From the NCBI GenBank assembly GCA_040222015.1, contig JAVJWO010000216.1, positions 32,001 through 96,000 on the forward strand: DNA of 64,000 bases. The letters are read 5' to 3'. Positions 50,970 through 60,333 of the stretch are shown piece by piece. The first letter of the stretch is position 1; each line of letters opens with the position of its first letter. Below the pieces are notes generated by a model. It did no database searches, was not told the DNA's origin, and saw nothing but the letters and a program-made list of their open reading frames with translations. The DNA comes from Coleofasciculus chthonoplastes F2-STO-03. Lineage in GTDB: Bacteria; Cyanobacteriota; Cyanobacteriia; Cyanobacteriales; Coleofasciculaceae. Made by a program: the position numbers and the translations under genes.

Positions 50970-51731
50970 TTATTGGTTGACGTAAGGATTAACATTTTTA
51001 GCCCAGTTGAGGTATCCTTTGCCGTTTAAATGCACGCCGTCAATGGTGTATACGGGGTCAAGTTGTTTCTGATCGTTGGTAAAGTGTTGATGTAAATCAA
51101 TGTAAGTATAGGAAAATTCGTTGGCTAGCTCTTGCAGGTGGCGGTTGACGGCAATAATATCAGAGTTTTTGACGCTGATGGAATAGTGGATGGTGTTCAT
51201 GGGTAATAGGCTTTGAATAAAGACTTGGGTTTCTGGGGTTTGCTGTTGAATTTGTTCCAGGATGAGGCGATAGTTTTGGGCAATTTCCCTGGGGGGTTTG
51301 TGTTCATTCCATAGGTCATTTGCGCCGATCATTATAAAGAGTTTTTGGGGGTGGGATGCGGTGATTTTATTGAGGCGATTGAGAACGCCGTAGGTGGTAT
51401 CTCCAGATATGCCACGATTGCGGATATTGGCGTTTCCGAGGAGTTCTGCCCATTCACCTTGATCGGTGAGACTATCGCCGATGAAGATAATTTCGGTTTC
51501 GGAGTTGGGCATTTGCTCAAACATTTGTTTTCGCATTTGGTGATAGGTTGATTGATAGGTGTTGCGACGACGGGCTATTTTTATGGTTTGTTCGACTTGT
51601 TGATGGAAGGGGAGTTTACTGATCAGGTAGGGAATGCCGCCTCTGCGAATGATTAAGATGGTGAAGAGGAGGATAAAGAGTAGGTTTAGGCTGAGGGATG
51701 TCCAAAGGATTAGGGAATTTTTGGTAGTCAT
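50970..51731 (-). CDS. GDSL/SGNH hydrolase with N-terminal membrane anchor
   Basis: IGDSLT, NRGISGDTT, IGANDL, DGVHLNGKGY. Confidence 0.93.
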   Translation of the reverse strand: MTTKNSLILWTSLSLNLLFILLFTILIIRRGGIPYLISKLPFHQQVEQTIKIARRRNTYQSTYHQMRKQMFEQMPNSETEIIFIGDSLTDQGEWAELLGNANIRNRGISGDTTYGVLNRLNKITASHPQKLFIMIGANDLWNEHKPPREIAQNYRLILEQIQQQTPETQVFIQSLLPMNTIHYSISVKNSDIIAVNRHLQELANEFSYTYIDLHQHFTNDQKQLDPVYTIDGVHLNGKGYLNWAKNVNPYVNQ

Positions 51732-51744
51732 GGGGAATTTGTCG

Positions 51745-51901
51745 GGGTGGGTTGAGATAATGTCGGTGTGGGTTGAGATAATGTAGGGGCGGGTTGAGAT
51801 AATGTCGGTGTGGGTTGAGATAATGTAGGGGCGGGTTGAGATAATGTAGGGGCGGGTTGAGATAATGTAGGGGCGGGTTGAGATAATGTAGGGGCGGGTT
51901 T
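51745..51901. repeat. 21-bp tandem repeat of a REP left arm (GGGTTGAGATAATGTAGGGGC), ~7 copies
   Basis: Directly visible; ends in GTAGGGGCGGGTTT, which pairs with AAACCCGCCC at ~51941. Confidence 0.9.
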
Positions 51902-52097
51902 AGGGACTAAATTTTGCTAGTTAGAACTAACGGAACAACGAAACCCGCCCTGCCTCACCGATATAGCAACCGCCACAACGGTTAGGACACTAAACGTGCA
52001 TCGACGCAATAAGCGGCATTTATCTGATGTCCTAATGACTCTGCATAACCGATAATTGAACAAGGAAATATGCCGTATTTTACCAATAAATGAACAA

Positions 52098-52301: not shown

Positions 52302-53600
52302 ATGAGTGTGATTCCATCAAAACCGCGCTATTGGCTGAAAAATGCTCGTGTGCCACTCTCAATGTTACAGGTTGAGGATAAATCGATTTGGGAGAATCGC
52401 ACCTCTGAGGGGTTGTGTTTAGTGGATATTCAGGTGGCTGCGGGAAAAGTGGCGCAAATTGTGCGGGCGAATTCTCAGCCGATCGCAGATATGGTGGTGG
52501 ATGTGCAGGGGGGACAGGTTTGGGCTGGGTTTGTGGATATGCATACTCATCTGGATAAGGGGCATATTTGGGAACGCACGCCGAATCTGGATGGAACGTT
52601 TGATAGTGCGTTGGCGAGGGTGCAACAGGATAGTTTGCAGTATTGGCAAGCGGAGGATGTGTATCGCCGCATGGGGTTTGGGTTGAGGTGTAGTTATGCC
52701 CATGGTACTCAGGCGATTCGCACTCATATTGATGCGTTTGGGGAACAGGCGAGGATTAGTTTTGGCGTGTTTCAGCAGTTACAGCAGGAGTGGGCGAATC
52801 GATTGGTGTTGCAGGCGGTGGCTTTGGTGTCGCTGGATTATTATTTGACGCCGGAAGGGGTAAAGTTGGCGGATTTGGTGGCGGAGGTGGGGGGAGTTTT
52901 AGGGGGGGTGGCGTATATGAATCCGGAGTTGGAGGCGCAGTTGAATCAAGTGTTTCGGCTGGCGCAGGAACGGGATTTGGCGCTGGATTTTCATGTGGAT
53001 GAGACGGATGATCCGGAGTCGATGTGTTTGAGGAAGGTGGCGGAAGCGGCGCTACGGTGTGGGTTTGGGCGACAAATTGTTTGTGGACATTGTTGTAGTT
53101 TGGCGGTGCAGTCGCCGGAGGTGGTGGCGGAGACGTTGGCGCTGGTGAAGGAGGCGGGAATTGGGGTGGTGAGTTTACCGTTATCGAATTTGTATTTACA
53201 GGATCGGAAGTCGGGGAGAACACCGCGTTGGCGTGGGGTGACGCTGATTCAGGAGTTACAGGAGTATGGGATTGAGGTGACGTTGGCGAGTGATAATTGT
53301 CGTGATCCGTTTTTTGGGTTTGGGGATCATGATGTGTTGGAGGTGTTTAATCAAGGGGTGAGAGTTGCCCATTTGGATGGGTTGTATGGGGAGTCTCCGG
53401 CGATGGTGACGAAAACGGCGGCGGATTTGATGGGGTTGACGGATGTGGGGCGAATTAGTGTGGAGTTGGCGGCGAATTTGGTTTGGTTTAAGGGACGCAG
53501 TTACAGTGAATTGTTATCACGTCCTCAGTGCGATCGCGTGGTGATTCGCGACGGAATAGCGATTGATACGACGTTACCGGATTACCGGGAATTGGATTAG
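52302..53600 (+). CDS. Cytosine deaminase-family amidohydrolase
   Basis: FVDMHTHLDKGH, DFHVDETDD, GHCCSL, ASDNCRDPF. Confidence 0.9.
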   Translation: MSVIPSKPRYWLKNARVPLSMLQVEDKSIWENRTSEGLCLVDIQVAAGKVAQIVRANSQPIADMVVDVQGGQVWAGFVDMHTHLDKGHIWERTPNLDGTFDSALARVQQDSLQYWQAEDVYRRMGFGLRCSYAHGTQAIRTHIDAFGEQARISFGVFQQLQQEWANRLVLQAVALVSLDYYLTPEGVKLADLVAEVGGVLGGVAYMNPELEAQLNQVFRLAQERDLALDFHVDETDDPESMCLRKVAEAALRCGFGRQIVCGHCCSLAVQSPEVVAETLALVKEAGIGVVSLPLSNLYLQDRKSGRTPRWRGVTLIQELQEYGIEVTLASDNCRDPFFGFGDHDVLEVFNQGVRVAHLDGLYGESPAMVTKTAADLMGLTDVGRISVELAANLVWFKGRSYSELLSRPQCDRVVIRDGIAIDTTLPDYRELD

Positions 53601-53645
53601 TCATTCGTCATTCGTCATTCGTCATTTGTTATTCGTCATTTGTCA
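53601..53645. repeat. STRR heptamer tract (GTCATTC)
   Basis: Visible tandem 7-mers abutting the DUF433 stop codon. Confidence 0.85.
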
Positions 53646-53837
53646 ATAAAGTAAACAAGCTTGTACATCTTCCGGTTCTAGCCAGGGATAACCAACTAGC
53701 AATGTCTCGACTGTATCACCTGCTGCCAGCATTCCTAGAACGTGTTCAACGGCTAAACGGCGTCCTCGAATAATTGGCTTTCCACTAAAAATTTTTGGAT
53801 TGACTGTAATTCTTGCTAAAATTTTTTTCTCGTCCAT
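53643..53837 (-). CDS. DUF433-family antitoxin-like protein (no toxin gene adjacent)
   Basis: RITVNPKIFSGKPIIRGRRL.VE.VL..LAAG......YP.L..EDV.ACL.Y. Confidence 0.88.
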   Translation of the reverse strand: MDEKKILARITVNPKIFSGKPIIRGRRLAVEHVLGMLAAGDTVETLLVGYPWLEPEDVQACLLY

Positions 53838-53924
53838 AATCAACCGTCCTAATCCTCTAAAAAAATAAGTAAAATACCTTTGTCATTGTAGAACAAAACC
53901 AAAGTGTCGTTTTCCGCTTGGTGA

Positions 53925-54779
53925 TTATCTTAGCATTCCCCCTTGGGATATCCGTCGCACCATCCCCATTCCCATTGTGGTTTTCCGCCCGACGCCAGAA
54001 TAGAGGGTAAAATCGGCTAAAGCGTTAATTTGCTGAATCGCCTCTGCTTCAGGTTTTCCCATAATCCGAAAATTGAGTGCGCCAACACAGCCAATAAATT
54101 TACTGCGAGAATCGGCAACTAATTCGGTGTGAATCTCAAAGAAACTGGGGAAAACATGATCGACTAATGTTTTCGAGAATTCTATGCCACTGTATTGATT
54201 CCAGCGCTTAATTAAACTGTTAAAGACTAATTCCCTTGTGGGTAAGGCACAATCATATTTACTCTGACGAAATGCGGTGGGGGTAGAGAAGGCGAAATTC
54301 AGAGTGCGATCGCGCGTCGAGGCTTGGTCGTATAATTGTTGATAACTGAGAGCATTTGCCCAACATCCAGGCATCCCTTTTTGGGGTGTTCCTAGAATAC
54401 TGGTAATCTGCAAGTTAGCTGGACCTAAATGCCAGGGTTGTTCCGGATTCAGGTTTAGCCACAGGTGGGTTAATTGACTGAATAAGGTATCATCAAGTAG
54501 GGAAATTCGCCACCAACAGGGAGTTCCTTGGGGAATTGGTTTATGGTGTTGCCAGTGGAGGTTTGCTGATGCTGAATCACTACGATGCTGAATTTGTAGG
54601 GGACTCAGGGTAAAGGCTTTATCGGATTTGGCTTCGTGGAGATAATCGCCTAGGTTTCTATCGACAGAACTTACCAGGTTGAGAAATAGGGCGTGTAAGT
54701 GGCGTCCACTGAGAAACTGTGGTGGAATTGGCGATTGGGGAAGTAGGTTGAGAATTAGACTATGGGGCATAGTTTGCAT
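53925..54779 (-). CDS. cas6: CRISPR-associated endoribonuclease Cas6 (cyanobacterial I-D type); start at ATG 54779 or 54770
   Basis: MPHSLILNL, GRHLHALFL, F.TPTAFRQ, C-terminal Gly loop GVGRKTTMGMG. Confidence 0.96.
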   Translation of the reverse strand: MQTMPHSLILNLLPQSPIPPQFLSGRHLHALFLNLVSSVDRNLGDYLHEAKSDKAFTLSPLQIQHRSDSASANLHWQHHKPIPQGTPCWWRISLLDDTLFSQLTHLWLNLNPEQPWHLGPANLQITSILGTPQKGMPGCWANALSYQQLYDQASTRDRTLNFAFSTPTAFRQSKYDCALPTRELVFNSLIKRWNQYSGIEFSKTLVDHVFPSFFEIHTELVADSRSKFIGCVGALNFRIMGKPEAEAIQQINALADFTLYSGVGRKTTMGMGMVRRISQGGMLR

Positions 54780-55616
54780 CCCTGATAGGGATTATAGAGG
54801 ATTTCGACTATATTCCTGCACTCCATTCTTATAAACAGGAGTGGTTTCAATCCCTGATAGGGATTATAGAGGATTTTGACGTTCAATGGCTTCCTAGTTC
54901 CCCGGAATCTATGAAGATTCCGTTTCAATCCCTGATAGGGATTATAGAGGATTTTGACCAAGAATCATGATCTAGATCCAGCTGGATAATTTGTTTCAAT
55001 CCCTAGTAGGGATTATAGAGGATTTTGACGCGGATTCCTACGTTCCCTGAATGGAAGGACAATGTACTGTTTCAATCCCTAGTAGGGATTATAGAGGATT
55101 TTGACCGTAATTAGTGCTGTCGGTATTCACTCCGGAGAAAGTTTCAATCCCTAGTAGGGATTATAGAGGATTTTGACCTTATTATTGATTCCCCCAAGTG
55201 TACTATTGAAATGCCGTTTCAATCCCTAGTAGGGATTATAGAGGATTTTGACTGGGGGTGTCCTCCCCTACTATTTCCAGGTGGCTGTTTCAATCCCTAG
55301 TAGGGATTATAGAGGATTTTGACCTGTGCGTTGATTCTCTTCTCAAGTTCAAGCCAGATGTTTCAATCCCTAGTAGGGATTATAGAGGATTTTGACGGTA
55401 TATGCCTGGTTTCTAGGATTCGCCTGTGGAGTTTCAATCCCTAGTAGGGATTATAGAGGATTTTGACCTCGTTTGGTTAGGTTTTCGCTAAATCCTTTGA
55501 GTCGTTTCAATCCCTAGTAGGGATTATAGAGGATTTTGACCGGCTCCCCCGCTCTTGCCCCATACGGTATCTATCTTTAGTTTCAATCCCTAGTAGGGAT
55601 TATAGAGGATTTTGAC
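54772..55616 (-). CRISPR. CRISPR array, 12 repeats of 37 nt and 11 spacers of 34-41 nt; transcribed repeat GTCAAAATCCTCTATAATCCCTACTAGGGATTGAAAC (type I-D-like)
   Basis: Repeats start at 54772 (degenerate), 54844, 54922, 54993, 55069, 55141, 55216, 55287, 55360, 55431, 55504, 55580; ATTGAAAC 3' end, leader side and degenerate repeat all give minus orientation. Confidence 0.98.
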
Positions 55617-55865
55617 CGCCGACCTCTGAAACGCTTACTGTATTTGATTTTCAAGGTTCGATTGCGACAACCTCCTCTAACTATAGCATTTCAGCCCTCG
55701 GTTTTGACAACCCCCGCGAACAAAAAAGTCTCAAACCCTTTCTGAATCAGCTTTTCAGCCATTGCGACAACCTCCTCATTCGCGAAAAAGGCTGTATCCC
55801 TGACTCAATAAGGAATACAGCCTCAAATTTTGACTCCCCGAAAAAAACACCTACTGGTTGTCGCA
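55617..55865 (-). promoter_or_regulatory. CRISPR leader with repeated motifs
   Basis: ATTGCGACAACCTCCTC at 55661 and 55761 (100 bp apart), inverted GGTTGTCGCA at 55856; lies between the cas2 remnant and the first repeat. Confidence 0.85.
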
Positions 55866-56123
55866 TCAGACAAAGAAAATCGAATTATCCCTTATGGGTT
55901 CGCCGCCGATGCGTTCAACCTTCCCTTGACAACAGCCACAGAGGAAATAGAAGCGAATGCTGTCCTGGTCTGGCTTAATCACCTTAGAAAGACGCGATCG
56001 CAATTTGGCATATTAGGTATCCGTCAAACTGCACTCAAACACACTATACTGCATCCACTGCCCATAAGACTTAAGAATACTGTGTATCTTCGTCCGACGC
56101 TTATCTTCGGGGACAGCATAAAT
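55866..56123 (-). pseudogene. cas2: cas2 pseudogene (not in ORF track)
   Basis: Manual translation IYAVPEDKRRTKIHSILKSYGQWMQYSVFECSLTDT*YAKLRSRLSKVIKPDQDSIRFYFLCGCCQGKVERIGGEPIRDNSIFFV*; in-frame TAA at 56013-56015, no start codon, catalytic YD changed to YA. Confidence 0.92.
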
Positions 56124-56340
56124 TTTTAAGTTTGTTCGTAGTGAGGACTTTAGTCCTCTTCGTTAGCGGCGCTAAAGCGCCGACTACAAGCAAGCTATCC
56201 ACTTTGATAATAATTTGGTCAGATATTGCGGGCGAATTTACGATTTGACCTCTCCCCCAGCCCCTCTCCTGCAAGGAGAGGGGAGTCCGGTTCCCCCTTC
56301 CATTCAACAAAAGCGAAGCATCCTTTGACTTCCCTCCTTG

Positions 56341-56445: not shown

Positions 56446-56946
56446 GGCTATGCATTACTCACATCTTTCTTAACATAAATTCCCTTGACTTTAGCAGTAG
56501 TTTTGGGAGAAAGTAAAAGCCAAGTCTGGGCAATGTCAAGCACCAAGCAAGTTTTTGTAATCTAATTGTAAATCTGGATAAATACTCTGGGGTTGCCAAT
56601 GCTCAATCTTCATAGTGTCGTGAGCTATACGTTGCATACAGTAACAACAAATATATCCTTGTTCAGTCAGTAATGATTGGCGTAGATCATCTTTTTGCGG
56701 ATAGTTATCATAATCAGCGTAAGGCTAGCCATCCTATAGCATCAATCTAGGAATCACAGTTAACAGCTACAAGACGTAATCAGTCAATTGTAGGGGCGGG
56801 TTTAGCCACTAATCTAGCTTGTCACAGATAACTGAGCAACAAAACCCGCCCTTATGCTTAAATCTGGATAATAGTTCTAGTCCATTTTAATGGACAATAA
56901 CCCTGAGCCAGTAGTTTGAACTCCGGGCGGGCGTGTCACACTCGCG

Positions 56947-58227
56947 TTATCCAGAATCCTCCTTTTCCAGCAAAGCCAATAAATTCAATTCTTTATTCGC
57001 TACATACCTCACCGGATTCTTCTGCTTAATCACTTTCCCCTCTTGCACCGCTCGTTTTAACCAATCTTCCATCTGTCCTTTTCGTATATCCAACGATTCA
57101 GCCAGAGATTTCGCATCTTGAGGTTGCTCTAACTGGTTAAGTATAAAGGGTAAAACCGCTTCATAGATATCTTTGGCGGGTAAATTAATGGAAATCGTTT
57201 TATCCCCACCTAAACCATCTCCGGCTGATAATTTTTCTGACTCGATTCTTCCCCCATCAGCTTGGCTTTCTTCAACCTCAGCGATAGCAGCATCTAAAAG
57301 TGTACGCAACAGTTTATTCCAAGGGGCTTCAGGAAAAACAATCCCTCCCTTTTCCAGCAATTTCTGATTACCTTCAGGAACAGTTCCCTGCATTCGCACA
57401 AAAACGGGGACATCTTTTACCTTTCTCAACACCTCAGTCGCCCCCGCCCAGGTTCCACCTTTGCCAACAGCAGAACTAATCACTAACGCATAATCAGCTA
57501 ACGCATAAATATACTTATTTCGCCCCATAGCATTACCCGTGCTGAAACTCGCGTCGGGGTCATACGCAGACACTAATGTTAGTCTACCTTCTTTAATTCC
57601 CGCACGATACTTACTCGCCACAGCCACTTTCGTCAAACTATCCGCAAGTACACCCACAGCATTCCCGCCTGCTGCTAATATACCTAACATTGACGCTTGA
57701 TCTACTCCACGCGCCCCACCAGAAATCACATTGATTCCTTGTTCAGCGCATGTCTGAACAACTCTTTCGGTATAATTAAGTCCGTCTTGATCAACATCAC
57801 GAGAACCAACGATAGCCAACCCACCTTGAGCAAGCAATTCTCTATTACCAATTCCATAGAGAATCGCGGGTGCATTATGTTTCAATCTCTGCTTCAAACA
57901 TTGAGGATAGCCTGCGTCACCTCGCCCCACTATCCATAACCCCTGATTCGTCCACTTTTCCACCGCCAAACTGAGCATTACACCGCGTTCAAGTAACGCG
58001 ACTAACCGCTGAGAATCAAGCTTGTCAATGGTAATTTGAGATAAGCGATTTTTCAGGGTTTGATCAAGCAAATCCTCCGGAATCATGTCATTTTCTACCA
58101 ACCAACTCGCTACCGTATTATACTCGCTCAGGGTTAAAGGTTTGGGTTCAGTTTGGCGATTTTGTCCAAAGCTGGCACACAATAATAAAATGGCTTGGGT
58201 ATTGGGTGACAGCAGATGGTAATCCAT
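56947..58227 (-). CDS. dprA: DprA/Smf DNA-processing family protein with C-terminal winged helix
   Basis: YP..L....APAILYGIGN, AIVGSR, ISGGARGVD, AMGRNKYIYALAD, GGTWAGA. Confidence 0.9.
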   Translation of the reverse strand: MDYHLLSPNTQAILLLCASFGQNRQTEPKPLTLSEYNTVASWLVENDMIPEDLLDQTLKNRLSQITIDKLDSQRLVALLERGVMLSLAVEKWTNQGLWIVGRGDAGYPQCLKQRLKHNAPAILYGIGNRELLAQGGLAIVGSRDVDQDGLNYTERVVQTCAEQGINVISGGARGVDQASMLGILAAGGNAVGVLADSLTKVAVASKYRAGIKEGRLTLVSAYDPDASFSTGNAMGRNKYIYALADYALVISSAVGKGGTWAGATEVLRKVKDVPVFVRMQGTVPEGNQKLLEKGGIVFPEAPWNKLLRTLLDAAIAEVEESQADGGRIESEKLSAGDGLGGDKTISINLPAKDIYEAVLPFILNQLEQPQDAKSLAESLDIRKGQMEDWLKRAVQEGKVIKQKNPVRYVANKELNLLALLEKEDSG

Positions 58228-58242
58228 AATCTTCTAATTTGC

Positions 58243-60333
58243 TTACGTTAACGAATTAAGTGCCAATGCTAACGGAAAAACTGGACCACTTCCAGCCCGA
58301 CGTAACAGTGCAGCAATAACAGTGAATGTCCAACGTGAATCTACCATATCATCAATTAAGAATACTGCCCCCTTCATCCCTTGCCAAGGTTTCACGGCAA
58401 AGACACCATCGAGGTTATGGGCTTGTTGGTAACTATTTCCCATCTGTTTTTGTGGCTGAGTATGGCGAACTTTCTGCACAATTGGCTGAAAGGTTAATTG
58501 TAATTGATGGGCGAGTCGTTGGGCAAAATTTGGCACAAGTTGGGGATGATGTAAGGAAGGGACACAGGTTACCCAAGTTGGAAAAGGTTGGGGGTGCCAA
58601 CGTTGAATCATCTCAAATGCACCCTGCACCAAGGCGTCGTCAAAATCATGATTATGGTATTTCCCTTGTTTGACTAATTCGCCCCAACCCGCATCCCCCC
58701 AAAGTGATAATGCTCGTCCGGGTTCAGCGCGTAAATTGTCGCGAATTTTCCCAGAAAACCCATAACTAGGGAGTGCTTTAGATGCCCATTGTTTACGAAG
58801 TTCGATAATTTGGTCACTACGACGGAGATACTGAATTGCTTGATTAACTCGGTTTAGTGAATAGGTTTCGGGTAATAACGGTCTACCCAAGCATACCGCA
58901 CATTTCCCGCAAGGTGTGGGCTGGGGATCATCTAATTCTCTGGCGAGAAATGTCATCAAGCATTCTTGACTATTCATATAGTCAAACATACGAGTTTGTT
59001 CTTGGCGGCGAATTTGGGTTAACCGTTCAATTTTCTCCGTATCCGGTTGATAAAATACGGGCGTCGCATACCATTTAGATCCTTGCTTGGTTATGGGTGC
59101 AGGAGACTCTAAGGATAACAGTTTCAATACCTTCTTGATTTGCCCATTAGAAAGATTGAGATGCTGCTCAATTTGGGTAATTGATAATCCATCTTCGGCT
59201 TGTTCTAACGCATTTAAAACCTCCTGAACATGAGCCTCTGGTGGAAAGGCAGTTTGAATAAAATAATCCGTAATTTCCTGATCTTCTTCTCCACCGAGCA
59301 GAATTCCATAAGCTTGCTCTACCGCTCTCCCGGCTCGTCCGACTTGTTGGTAATAATGAACCACAGAACCCGGACGCTGATAGTGGATGACAAATCCTAA
59401 ATCCGGCTTATCAAACCCCATTCCTAAAGCAGTTGTCGCGACTAAAGCCTTAATTTCATTGTTAAGCAGTTGGTCTTCTAAGGTTAAACGCTGTTCATGA
59501 GTTAGCTTAGCATGGTAGGCTTGAGCATGAATCCCTTGCTGATTTAACCAATCGGCAACTCGTTCGGTATCTTTGGTAGTTAATGCGTAAATAATCCCAC
59601 TTCCGGGTAAGTTGGGCAAGTGCTCAGCTAACCACGCCATACGTGCGGCGGAGCTCGGTAATTTAAGGGTTTGTAATTGTAAGCTTTTTCGGGTTAGAGT
59701 ACCTCTGGATACCAGTAAATTTGCACCTAGTTGCGTAATAATATCGTTAACCACGCGGTTATTTGCCGTGGCGGTTGTGGCGAGGGCGGGAATGGTTTGA
59801 GGAAGCGCTTGTAAAACCCGGACAATGCGCCGATAGTCTGGGCGAAAATCATGTCCCCAATCAGAGATACAATGGGCTTCATCGACAACAAATAAGCCAA
59901 TTCGTTGGGAGATGGGTAACAGAATGGTTTGGCGAAAGTCTTCATTGGCGAGTCGTTCGGGGGAAATCAGGAGAATATCAATGATTCCCGCTTGTAATTG
60001 AGCGTTAATCTGTTCCCACTCTTCGGGATTACTGGAGTTAATCGTGGCGGCGTTAATATTAATCCGTTTAGCAGCGACAATTTGATTTCGCATTAACGCC
60101 AGGAGGGGTGAAATCAGCAGAGTGGAACCCCCATGATTATCACGCAGCAAACGAGTAGCGAGAAAGTAGACAATGCTTTTCCCCCAGCCTGTGCGTTGTA
60201 CAACTAGAAGCCGCGATCGCTCTAAAATTATGCTAGCGATGGCTTCCCATTGTCCATCCCGAAATTGAGCGGTTGGGTTGTTGAGGGCTTGGCGCAGCAG
60301 CGATAGTGCTTGGGCTTTCAGTTGGGTTGTCAT
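58243..60333 (-). CDS. RecQ-family helicase with C-terminal phosphoribosyltransferase-like domain (RqlH-like)
   Basis: QRTGWGKS, VDEAHCISDWGHDFRPDY, ALGMGFDKPD, YYQQVGRAGR, CGKCAVC Zn site, C-terminal LIDDMVDSRWT PRPP-loop-like motif. Confidence 0.93.
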   Translation of the reverse strand: MTTQLKAQALSLLRQALNNPTAQFRDGQWEAIASIILERSRLLVVQRTGWGKSIVYFLATRLLRDNHGGSTLLISPLLALMRNQIVAAKRININAATINSSNPEEWEQINAQLQAGIIDILLISPERLANEDFRQTILLPISQRIGLFVVDEAHCISDWGHDFRPDYRRIVRVLQALPQTIPALATTATANNRVVNDIITQLGANLLVSRGTLTRKSLQLQTLKLPSSAARMAWLAEHLPNLPGSGIIYALTTKDTERVADWLNQQGIHAQAYHAKLTHEQRLTLEDQLLNNEIKALVATTALGMGFDKPDLGFVIHYQRPGSVVHYYQQVGRAGRAVEQAYGILLGGEEDQEITDYFIQTAFPPEAHVQEVLNALEQAEDGLSITQIEQHLNLSNGQIKKVLKLLSLESPAPITKQGSKWYATPVFYQPDTEKIERLTQIRRQEQTRMFDYMNSQECLMTFLARELDDPQPTPCGKCAVCLGRPLLPETYSLNRVNQAIQYLRRSDQIIELRKQWASKALPSYGFSGKIRDNLRAEPGRALSLWGDAGWGELVKQGKYHNHDFDDALVQGAFEMIQRWHPQPFPTWVTCVPSLHHPQLVPNFAQRLAHQLQLTFQPIVQKVRHTQPQKQMGNSYQQAHNLDGVFAVKPWQGMKGAVFLIDDMVDSRWTFTVIAALLRRAGSGPVFPLALALNSLT

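Follow-up and report, generated by a model that had tools for sequence, protein, structure and literature searches.

A type I-D CRISPR array leads directly into cas6

The 64,000-nucleotide (nt) stretch analysed here (the window), from contig JAVJWO010000216.1 of the cyanobacterium Coleofasciculus chthonoplastes F2-STO-03, carries a CRISPR array whose terminal repeat ends one nucleotide before the start codon of a cas6 gene. The array (54772-55616, minus strand) was delineated from our repeat family D2 and the Rfam model CRISPR-DR5, and has 12 copies of a 37-nt repeat, separated by spacers of 34-41 nt. CRISPR-DR5 matches 12/12 repeats on the minus strand, the terminal repeat with the lowest score (30.5 bits versus 39.9-45.7), and the repeats have the form of a 37-nt type I-D repeat with a hairpin and an 8-nt 3' part, the predicted handle. 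We also considered a CreA-type mini-array encoding a CRISPR RNA-like RNA (crlRNA), a kind defined by one or two degenerate repeats and a spacer-like match to a cas promoter; the regular 12-repeat array with its full leader does not fit this form.

The leader (~250 nt; 55617-55866, minus strand) was recognized by setting the four leaders of the genome side by side. It lies on the high-coordinate side and is common to all four arrays that carry this repeat in the genome; none of the other three is followed by cas6. From the strand of the CRISPR-DR5 matches and the side of the leader it follows that the array reads toward cas6, as a first-pass annotation made from the sequence had proposed. The leader is presumed to hold the array promoter, for which a TTGTCA ... 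TATAGT pair ~85 nt before the first repeat is a candidate; we found this pair by eye, and it is absent from the list of a promoter scan. When we scanned 53500-56300, we found no terminator-like site on the array's strand between leader and cas6. The three terminator-like matches in this interval overlap one another as variants of a single site on the plus strand within the array (55254-55268), and neither promoter-like nor terminator-like sites exceeded their counts in shuffled sequences. Directly upstream of the leader lies a cas2 pseudogene (55867-56105, minus strand), identified by three-frame translation and alignment with the intact cas2 of contig C47; its 5' end is cut off by a small repeat element, and an in-frame CAG has become a TAA stop.

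Read directly on the minus strand, the terminal repeat (54808 to 54772) is GTCGAAATCCTCTATAATCCCTATCAGGGATGCAAAC. It is followed by a single T (54771) and then by ATG CCC CAT AGT CTA, encoding MPHSL, from 54770. Direct reading, repeat family and Rfam score thus identify the whole 5' flank of cas6 as a CRISPR repeat (54772-54808, minus strand). The repeat hairpin CCCT-ATC-AGGG (54780-54790, minus strand) has an intact CCCT/AGGG stem. In contrast, the final 8 nt (54772-54779, minus strand) read ATGCAAAC instead of the ATTGAAAC found in the remaining 11 repeats, and RNA folding gives a 6-bp stem with this variant handle versus 8 bp in a canonical terminal repeat. One substitution in the handle, T3 to G, creates an ATG at 54779-54777. 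The resulting ATG CAA ACT ATG is in frame with cas6, and the list of open reading frames (ORFs) accordingly has 53925-54779 as MQTMPHSL. The 8-nt handle and the 1-nt linker add up to 9 nt, so any ATG at handle positions 1-3 would be in frame, and the frame of this ATG is no independent coincidence. The first-pass annotation had described a repeat ending 1 nt before the ATG at 54770, with its stem kept and an in-frame ATG at 54779; each of these points holds.

Cas6 is predicted to cut between 54780 and 54779, 9 nt 5' of the AUG at 54770. The hairpin occupies positions -20 to -10 relative to that start codon, which puts a Cas6 recognition site in the leader of cas6 itself. Its AGGG appears to be the sole Shine-Dalgarno-like stretch before the gene. 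Two further features overlap the junction. A TATAAT within the terminal repeat (54791-54796, minus strand; direct reading), common to every repeat, is a possible -10 box, and a small hairpin ACUAUG-CCC-CAUAGU (54759-54773, minus strand) encloses the conserved start codon with a predicted folding energy of -3.6 kcal/mol. The latter is weak and only partly conserved: in the related locus L003 it has 5 bp and -2.3 kcal/mol.

The gene behind the junction is a conserved cas6

The ORF at 53925-54770 (minus strand; 281 amino acids, start MPHSL), defined by profile matches and homologues, encodes a Cas6 with N- and C-terminal domains over curated cut-offs: PF19308 matches with an E-value of 9.7e-76 and 253.4 bits (cut-off 23.9), PF10040 with 1.1e-20 and 74.6 bits (cut-off 25), and TIGR01877 with 78.8 bits (cut-off 58.65). 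The translation contains GVGRKTTMGMG, which we take to be the glycine-rich loop near the C-terminus of Cas6. We fetched 80 related loci from public genomes, of which 79 include the cas6 N-terminus. In 79/79 the gene starts with ATGCC, encoding MP(H/Y/N)S, so 54770 is the conserved start, and the three extra codons before MPHSL are specific to some lineages. The Pfam model of the Cas6 N-terminal domain likewise starts matching at the second Met (residue 4 of MQTMPHSL). Gene callers disagree on this point: record P0127 starts with MQT and records P0001 and P0131 with MET, while NCBI-named records start with MPHSL.

Each genome with the junction has one I-D-type cas6 with an open frame. Among the junction-bearing cas6 genes, pairwise ratios of nonsynonymous to synonymous divergence (dN/dS) are 0.06-0.34, with synonymous divergence (dS) of up to 0.34. 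The gene is shown to be under purifying selection and to have stayed functional in this position through speciation.

The junction recurs across the genus, the handle ATG does not

We searched by pattern for the junction in 52 species genomes of the family, nine in the genus Coleofasciculus (this one included; the genus is taken from named related records) and 43 in 23 other genera. It is present in 7/9 species genomes of the genus (6/8 besides this genome) and in 0/43 genomes of the 23 other genera. The join of repeat, one base and ATG was found in six of the 79 relatives with an N-terminus (L001-L006, Cas6 93-98% identical), and eight of eight metagenome contigs that match the junction pattern proved to be true junctions with the canonical handle and six different last spacers. 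A looser pattern, run on 400 other cyanobacterial genomes, gave five matches, none of them a repeat or cas6. The recurrence of hairpin, 8 nt, 1 nt and ATGCC in this order is not chance.

Counting seven species genomes, L006 and the eight metagenome contigs gives 16 junctions. The handle is ATTGAAAC in 12 of them (four genomes and the eight metagenome contigs), ATTCAAAC in genome G020 (locus L001), ATGGAAAC in G019 (L002), ATGCAAAC in this genome and CTCGAAAC, with a C linker, in L006. The changes fall at handle positions 1, 3 and 4 only, and all four altered junctions have a weakened lower stem. An ATG in the handle is present at just two of the 16 junctions, those of this genome and of G019/L002. 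Only 29 nt at the 5' end of the terminal repeat are required by the last CRISPR RNA (crRNA), and the 8-nt handle there is unused by any crRNA.

The three closest genes, those of the window, L001 and L002, differ by dS of 0.05-0.09 and form the dS tree ((window, L001), L002), which implies either two origins of T-to-G at handle position 3 or one origin and one reversal. Events are so few that the repetition is only a hint of selection. Last spacers, of which we saw at least 11 different ones, differ between genomes, and the terminal repeat is therefore the only conserved sequence upstream of cas6. The conserved feature is the junction, and the handle ATG is a lineage-specific minority allele.

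These results change the emphasis of the first-pass annotation, which had centred on the mutated handle and had allowed that the arrangement might be a one-off deletion junction. The latter is refuted by conservation across species and by purifying selection on cas6. The comparison with relatives that it had proposed found cas6 abutting a terminal repeat in 7/9 species genomes of the genus and an ATG in the handle at 2/16 junctions. The emphasis on the handle itself did not hold up: 12/16 junctions keep ATTGAAAC, for which a 9-nt leader and not a leaderless message is predicted, and the conserved start is MPHSL.

Two junctions are interrupted farther upstream. At L004:~480-615 (G018), a ~130-nt insertion splits the terminal repeat after GTCAAAATCCTCTA, with TA duplicated; it replaced the first 12-14 nt of the repeat and left hairpin, handle and cas6 join untouched. 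At L002:2400-2881 (G019), a DUF433 gene and a truncated DUF5615/PIN-like gene replace the spacer between two regular repeats. This gene pair is co-oriented with the array, its first ATG lies 10 nt after the repeat, and by its placement it is probably a second case of coding sequence embedded in a pre-crRNA transcription unit.

cas6 moved from behind csc1 to the trailer end of the array

The type I-D operon of this genome lies on contig C47 and encodes a WYL regulator, Cas3', Cas10d/Csc3, Csc2, Csc1, Cas4, Cas1 and Cas2, followed by a leader and a 20-repeat array. The type I-D signature is complete, with TIGR03174, TIGR03157, TIGR03159 and TIGR03158 over NCBIfam cut-offs (cas10d/csc3, csc2, csc1 and cas3'), and Cas4 and Cas1 are recognized by Pfam matches. 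There is no cas6 in the 315-nt gap between csc1 and cas4 on C47. The sole full I-D-type cas6 of the genome is the array-abutting copy of the window, on contig C216. This gene content implies that it supplies the C47 operon in trans.

More distant relatives, such as L007 (90% identity), have cas6 directly after csc1. The order csc1-cas4-cas1-cas2-leader-array-cas6 is found in G022 and G019, and the short G020 contig starts at cas4; in G022 and G020 cas6 is followed by the same amidohydrolase gene as in the window. G016 has the same order with a decayed adaptation module, in which cas4 is cut to residues 1-98, cas1 gives no match and cas2 is partial. G022 preserves a trace of the earlier position. 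Behind csc1 it has the canonical 5' untranslated region and 39 initial cas6 codons, after which a small repeat element cuts the gene short. The homology of this remnant with the array-abutting cas6 starts exactly at the ATG. Behind the relocated cas6 of G016 and G020 lies a C-terminal fragment of cas4. These remnants show that cas6 left its customary position after csc1 and came to stand at the array's trailer end. The cas2 pseudogene and the gene order of sister species identify the window locus as the decayed remainder of a once complete type I-D locus. A candidate path of tandem duplication and subsequent deletions takes at least three events to account for all remnants.

An RNA contig of 921-932 nt that leaves cas6 at 54770 was considered as a sign of a strain with the canonical order, and was set aside when its flank matched the G022-type remnant behind csc1. 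Separately, C47 carries a cas6 fragment (G000:C47:46444-46677, minus strand) that covers residues about 152-232 at 81-83% identity (154-232 and 81% in the BLAST alignment). It sits ~650 nt past the degenerate last repeat of the main I-D array; this suggests that the C47 locus also once had cas6 behind its array.

RNA from microbial mats spans the junction

The available RNA data are assembled contigs of microbial-mat metatranscriptomes. In 3/4 runs, contigs of 107-110 nt span 54690 to 54796/54799; they join 81 nt of cas6 to 26-29 nt of the repeat and reach past both the predicted cut and the TATAAT; the fourth run (X5) has no bridging contig among the matches listed. The bridging contigs have a depth of 291-375, a mean word depth that mixes junction and gene-body words and gives no ratio of cut to uncut molecules. 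The runs hold 1258-2016 million letters and the genome 7.7 Mb; such depth spread evenly over 7.7 Mb would exceed whole runs, and the contigs are thus unlikely to come from contaminating DNA. Junction-spanning RNA therefore exists in relatives.

A model for cas6 as the tail of its own substrate

On balance we lean, if only slightly, toward a reading in which cas6 would form the tail of the precursor crRNA (pre-crRNA) and be cut free by its own product. In this model, cas6 would be transcribed from the leader promoter together with the array, and Cas6 cleavage at the terminal repeat would free the cas6 message from the precursor. The cut would leave a 5'-hydroxyl (5'-OH) end with a 9-nt leader, or an end beginning with AUG in this genome and G019, and would remove AGGG, the Shine-Dalgarno-like stretch. 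Cas6 bound to the hairpin, in the zone where ribosomes land, would block initiation. The supply of Cas6 would thereby be tied to array transcription, most plausibly with negative feedback as the likeliest outcome. Co-transcription, cleavage at the terminal repeat and feedback are all steps that we infer.

Excerpts of PMC5741207 and PMC10212523 establish that cyanobacterial type I-D Cas6 cuts 8 nt from the 3' end of the repeat, the position that the first-pass annotation had given, and that cleavage requires hairpin formation. The annotation's proposal that cas6 is the tail of the pre-crRNA stands in part: the array strand has no terminator-like site between leader and gene and RNA contigs bridge the join, but the weight given to the mutated handle does not carry over.

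Several observations weigh against this model. Flanking sequence can block cleavage by Cas6-1, according to PMC5741207. Handles are altered in 4/16 junctions, and a perfect TATAAT stands in every repeat, 7 nt before the hairpin loop, and could give cas6 a start site of its own inside the terminal repeat. RNA contigs cannot show transcript starts, ends or cleavage. Translation of a 5'-OH message might be poor with a leader of just 9 nt, in which case only uncut transcripts may be productive. In G018 and G019, the ~130-nt insertion and the ~490-nt gene pair separate the main array from cas6, and there long read-through is not the sole possibility; a scan found no terminator-like site in either inserted stretch.

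Weighing other explanations

The junction might also be a neutral scar, with cas6 expressed by read-through, the cut absent or inconsequential, no regulatory effect of the junction, and the handle variants due to drift. The remnants of duplication and decay (cas6 in G022, cas4 in G016 and G020, the cas2 pseudogene in the window) fit such a history, as does the fact that handle changes are limited to positions 1, 3 and 4, all dispensable for crRNAs. We nevertheless regard this as doubtful: the break falls exactly at the repeat end and the start codon, the join is unchanged through at least 11 different last spacers and dS of up to 0.34, and a hairpin that binds Cas6 would probably have some effect 10 nt ahead of a start codon, given that engineered Csy4 sites alter expression (excerpts of PMC8601185). 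A promoter within the terminal repeat is unlikely. Here the TATAAT (54796-54791) would act as a -10 box and transcription would start in the hairpin loop. The resulting message, by the same judgement improbable, would lack the 5' half of the stem and so be no Cas6 substrate, with AGGG exposed as a ribosome-binding site. The hexamer is perfect and is kept in all junction sequences, including that of G018 despite the insertion, and many cyanobacterial promoters are said to rely on the -10 element alone. Yet repeat identity already explains the TATAAT, and in G018 it was restored by the TA duplication of the insertion. The differing last spacers make a conserved -35 element impossible, the promoter scan found four sites versus 5.0 +/- 2.6 in shuffled sequences, and the RNA contigs extend to 54796-54799, which is upstream of where such a promoter would start transcription. 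We also considered and rejected a conserved last-spacer promoter: the scan gave one weak site (54835-54807, 9/12 matches), again without excess over shuffles, and the differences among last spacers leave no room for a conserved promoter within them.

Two further explanations turn on the handle. The idea closest to the first-pass annotation is that the message left by the cut begins at the AUG at 54779 and is translated as MQT-MPHSL, so that processing would set both translation mode and start, as positive or negative autoregulation. The sequence permits an in-frame AUG at the predicted cut, two lineages have T-to-G at handle position 3 next to different bases (ATGCAAAC and ATGGAAAC), and the same alleles appear in other assemblies (P0127 with MQT, P0001 and P0131 with MET). 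We consider it quite unlikely all the same, since just 2/16 junctions have the ATG, the MQT/MET extension is unconserved, the Pfam Cas6 N-terminal model starts at the second Met, and drift is expected in a handle that no crRNA uses. Cas6 cleavage leaves a 5'-OH end. Leaderless translation in E. coli reportedly requires a 5' phosphate (Giliberti and colleagues, 2012), and if this rule holds, it argues against efficient leaderless translation of the cut message. Similarly remote in our estimation is a broader scenario in which the repeat was taken over as the whole expression signal of cas6, with Cas6 making its message's 5' end. With the 5' handle of a crRNA, a cut message of the canonical kind could be captured by Cas5d and Cas7d in the manner of an extraneous crRNA, and its start codon, 10 nt in, would be hidden. 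Substitutions in the handle (positions 1, 3 and 4) would then be selected escapes from capture, and the 5'-terminal AUG of two lineages would allow leaderless reading, a switch of start and translation mode dependent on processing.

Relation to known systems

The locus resembles the Synechocystis CRISPR1 type I-D locus, which according to excerpts of PMC10212523 and PMC5741207 has the same gene set and a 37-nt hairpin repeat. In these excerpts the CRISPR1 order is cas3'-cas10d-csc2-csc1-cas6-cas4-cas1-cas2-array, and the handles left by CRISPR1-type Cas6 measure 8 nt (5') and 29 nt (3'), as is likewise predicted here. Unlike in Synechocystis, cas6 stands outside the operon and behind the array, and its 5' flank is the terminal repeat. 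Engineered Csy4/Cas6f insulators, as excerpts of PMC8601185 describe them, also place a repeat hairpin directly upstream of a coding region, where cleavage separates the message from upstream RNA. The arrangement here differs in being natural, in that the message encodes the nuclease itself, and in having no separate ribosome-binding site after the predicted cut.

In Haloferax volcanii, s479 is described in excerpts of a preprint (bioRxiv 10.1101/2021.02.19.431937) as a non-crRNA beside a CRISPR locus, with a repeat and a Cas6-dependent 5' end bearing an 8-nt handle. By the same account, s479 differs in being a small regulatory RNA bound by Cascade that is no mRNA and does not encode Cas6. Extraneous crRNA (ecrRNA), as parts of PMC12080349 report for type II-C, arises when an extra repeat and the sequence following it are processed in crRNA-like fashion, and mutating that repeat is one way in which this is avoided. 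The sequence of the window fits such an arrangement, with non-spacer sequence after the terminal repeat that might be processed and loaded; in contrast to the type II-C case, the putative guide here would be the beginning of the cas6 message itself. A cut message with a canonical handle would formally be an extraneous crRNA.

Self-cleavage of a leader also has precedents. E. coli RNase III (rnc) and RNase E (rne) cut the leader of their own mRNAs, giving feedback. Here, unlike in rnc and rne, the site is a borrowed CRISPR repeat gained by gene relocation, and feedback is a prediction of the model.

We found no description in open-access papers and preprints of a natural cas6 with a terminal repeat as its entire 5' flank. 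The parts (type I-D system, Cas6, repeat) are known, and cas6 behind the terminal repeat is a new variant of known Cas6 biology. The junction bears on the matching of Cas6 to pre-crRNA levels; here both would be joined on one transcript. The predicted cut 9 nt before the nuclease's own start codon has been retained by different species of a genus dominant in microbial mats. The junction is a natural counterpart of the engineered Csy4 insulator. It offers a test case for self-regulation by a nuclease, for near-leaderless translation from a 5'-OH end in cyanobacteria, and for the fate of RNA downstream of a terminal repeat. The separate loci of this genome also show that a type I-D operon can work with cas6 supplied from elsewhere.

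Neighbouring genes and small elements

A second, distant Cas6 paralogue (G000:C108:66044-66814, plus strand; 28-30% identical, open frame of 381 amino acids) presumably belongs to another CRISPR type. Directly after cas6 in the window, on the same strand, is a DUF433 gene (53643-53843, minus strand); elsewhere, G022 has DUF433 genes between cas3 and cas10d, and G019 has them within its array. Heptamer repeats (GTCATTC-like) occupy 53596-53645, between the DUF433 and amidohydrolase genes, and similar heptamers occur in the G018 insertion.

Adjoining the cas2 pseudogene are genes for a DprA/SLOG-like protein and a RecQ-like helicase (56947-60333, minus strand), where sister species have I-D effector genes. 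Between this genome and sister species (L089/L090 versus L102-L104), Cas3', Cas10d, Csc2 and Csc1 are only 46-71% identical, in contrast to 90-97% for Cas4 and 96% for Cas1 (75% for Cas1 in G019). This contrast points to an exchanged effector module.

A small element whose ends read GGGGCGGGTTT ... AAACCCGCCC occurs twice in the window (51887-51951 and 56789-56852), at L089:15100-15165 and at L102:~11095. One copy fills the csc1-cas4 gap from which cas6 is missing, and another ends the cas6 remnant in G022. The left end of the element also forms a 21-nt tandem array at 51698-51924 of the window.

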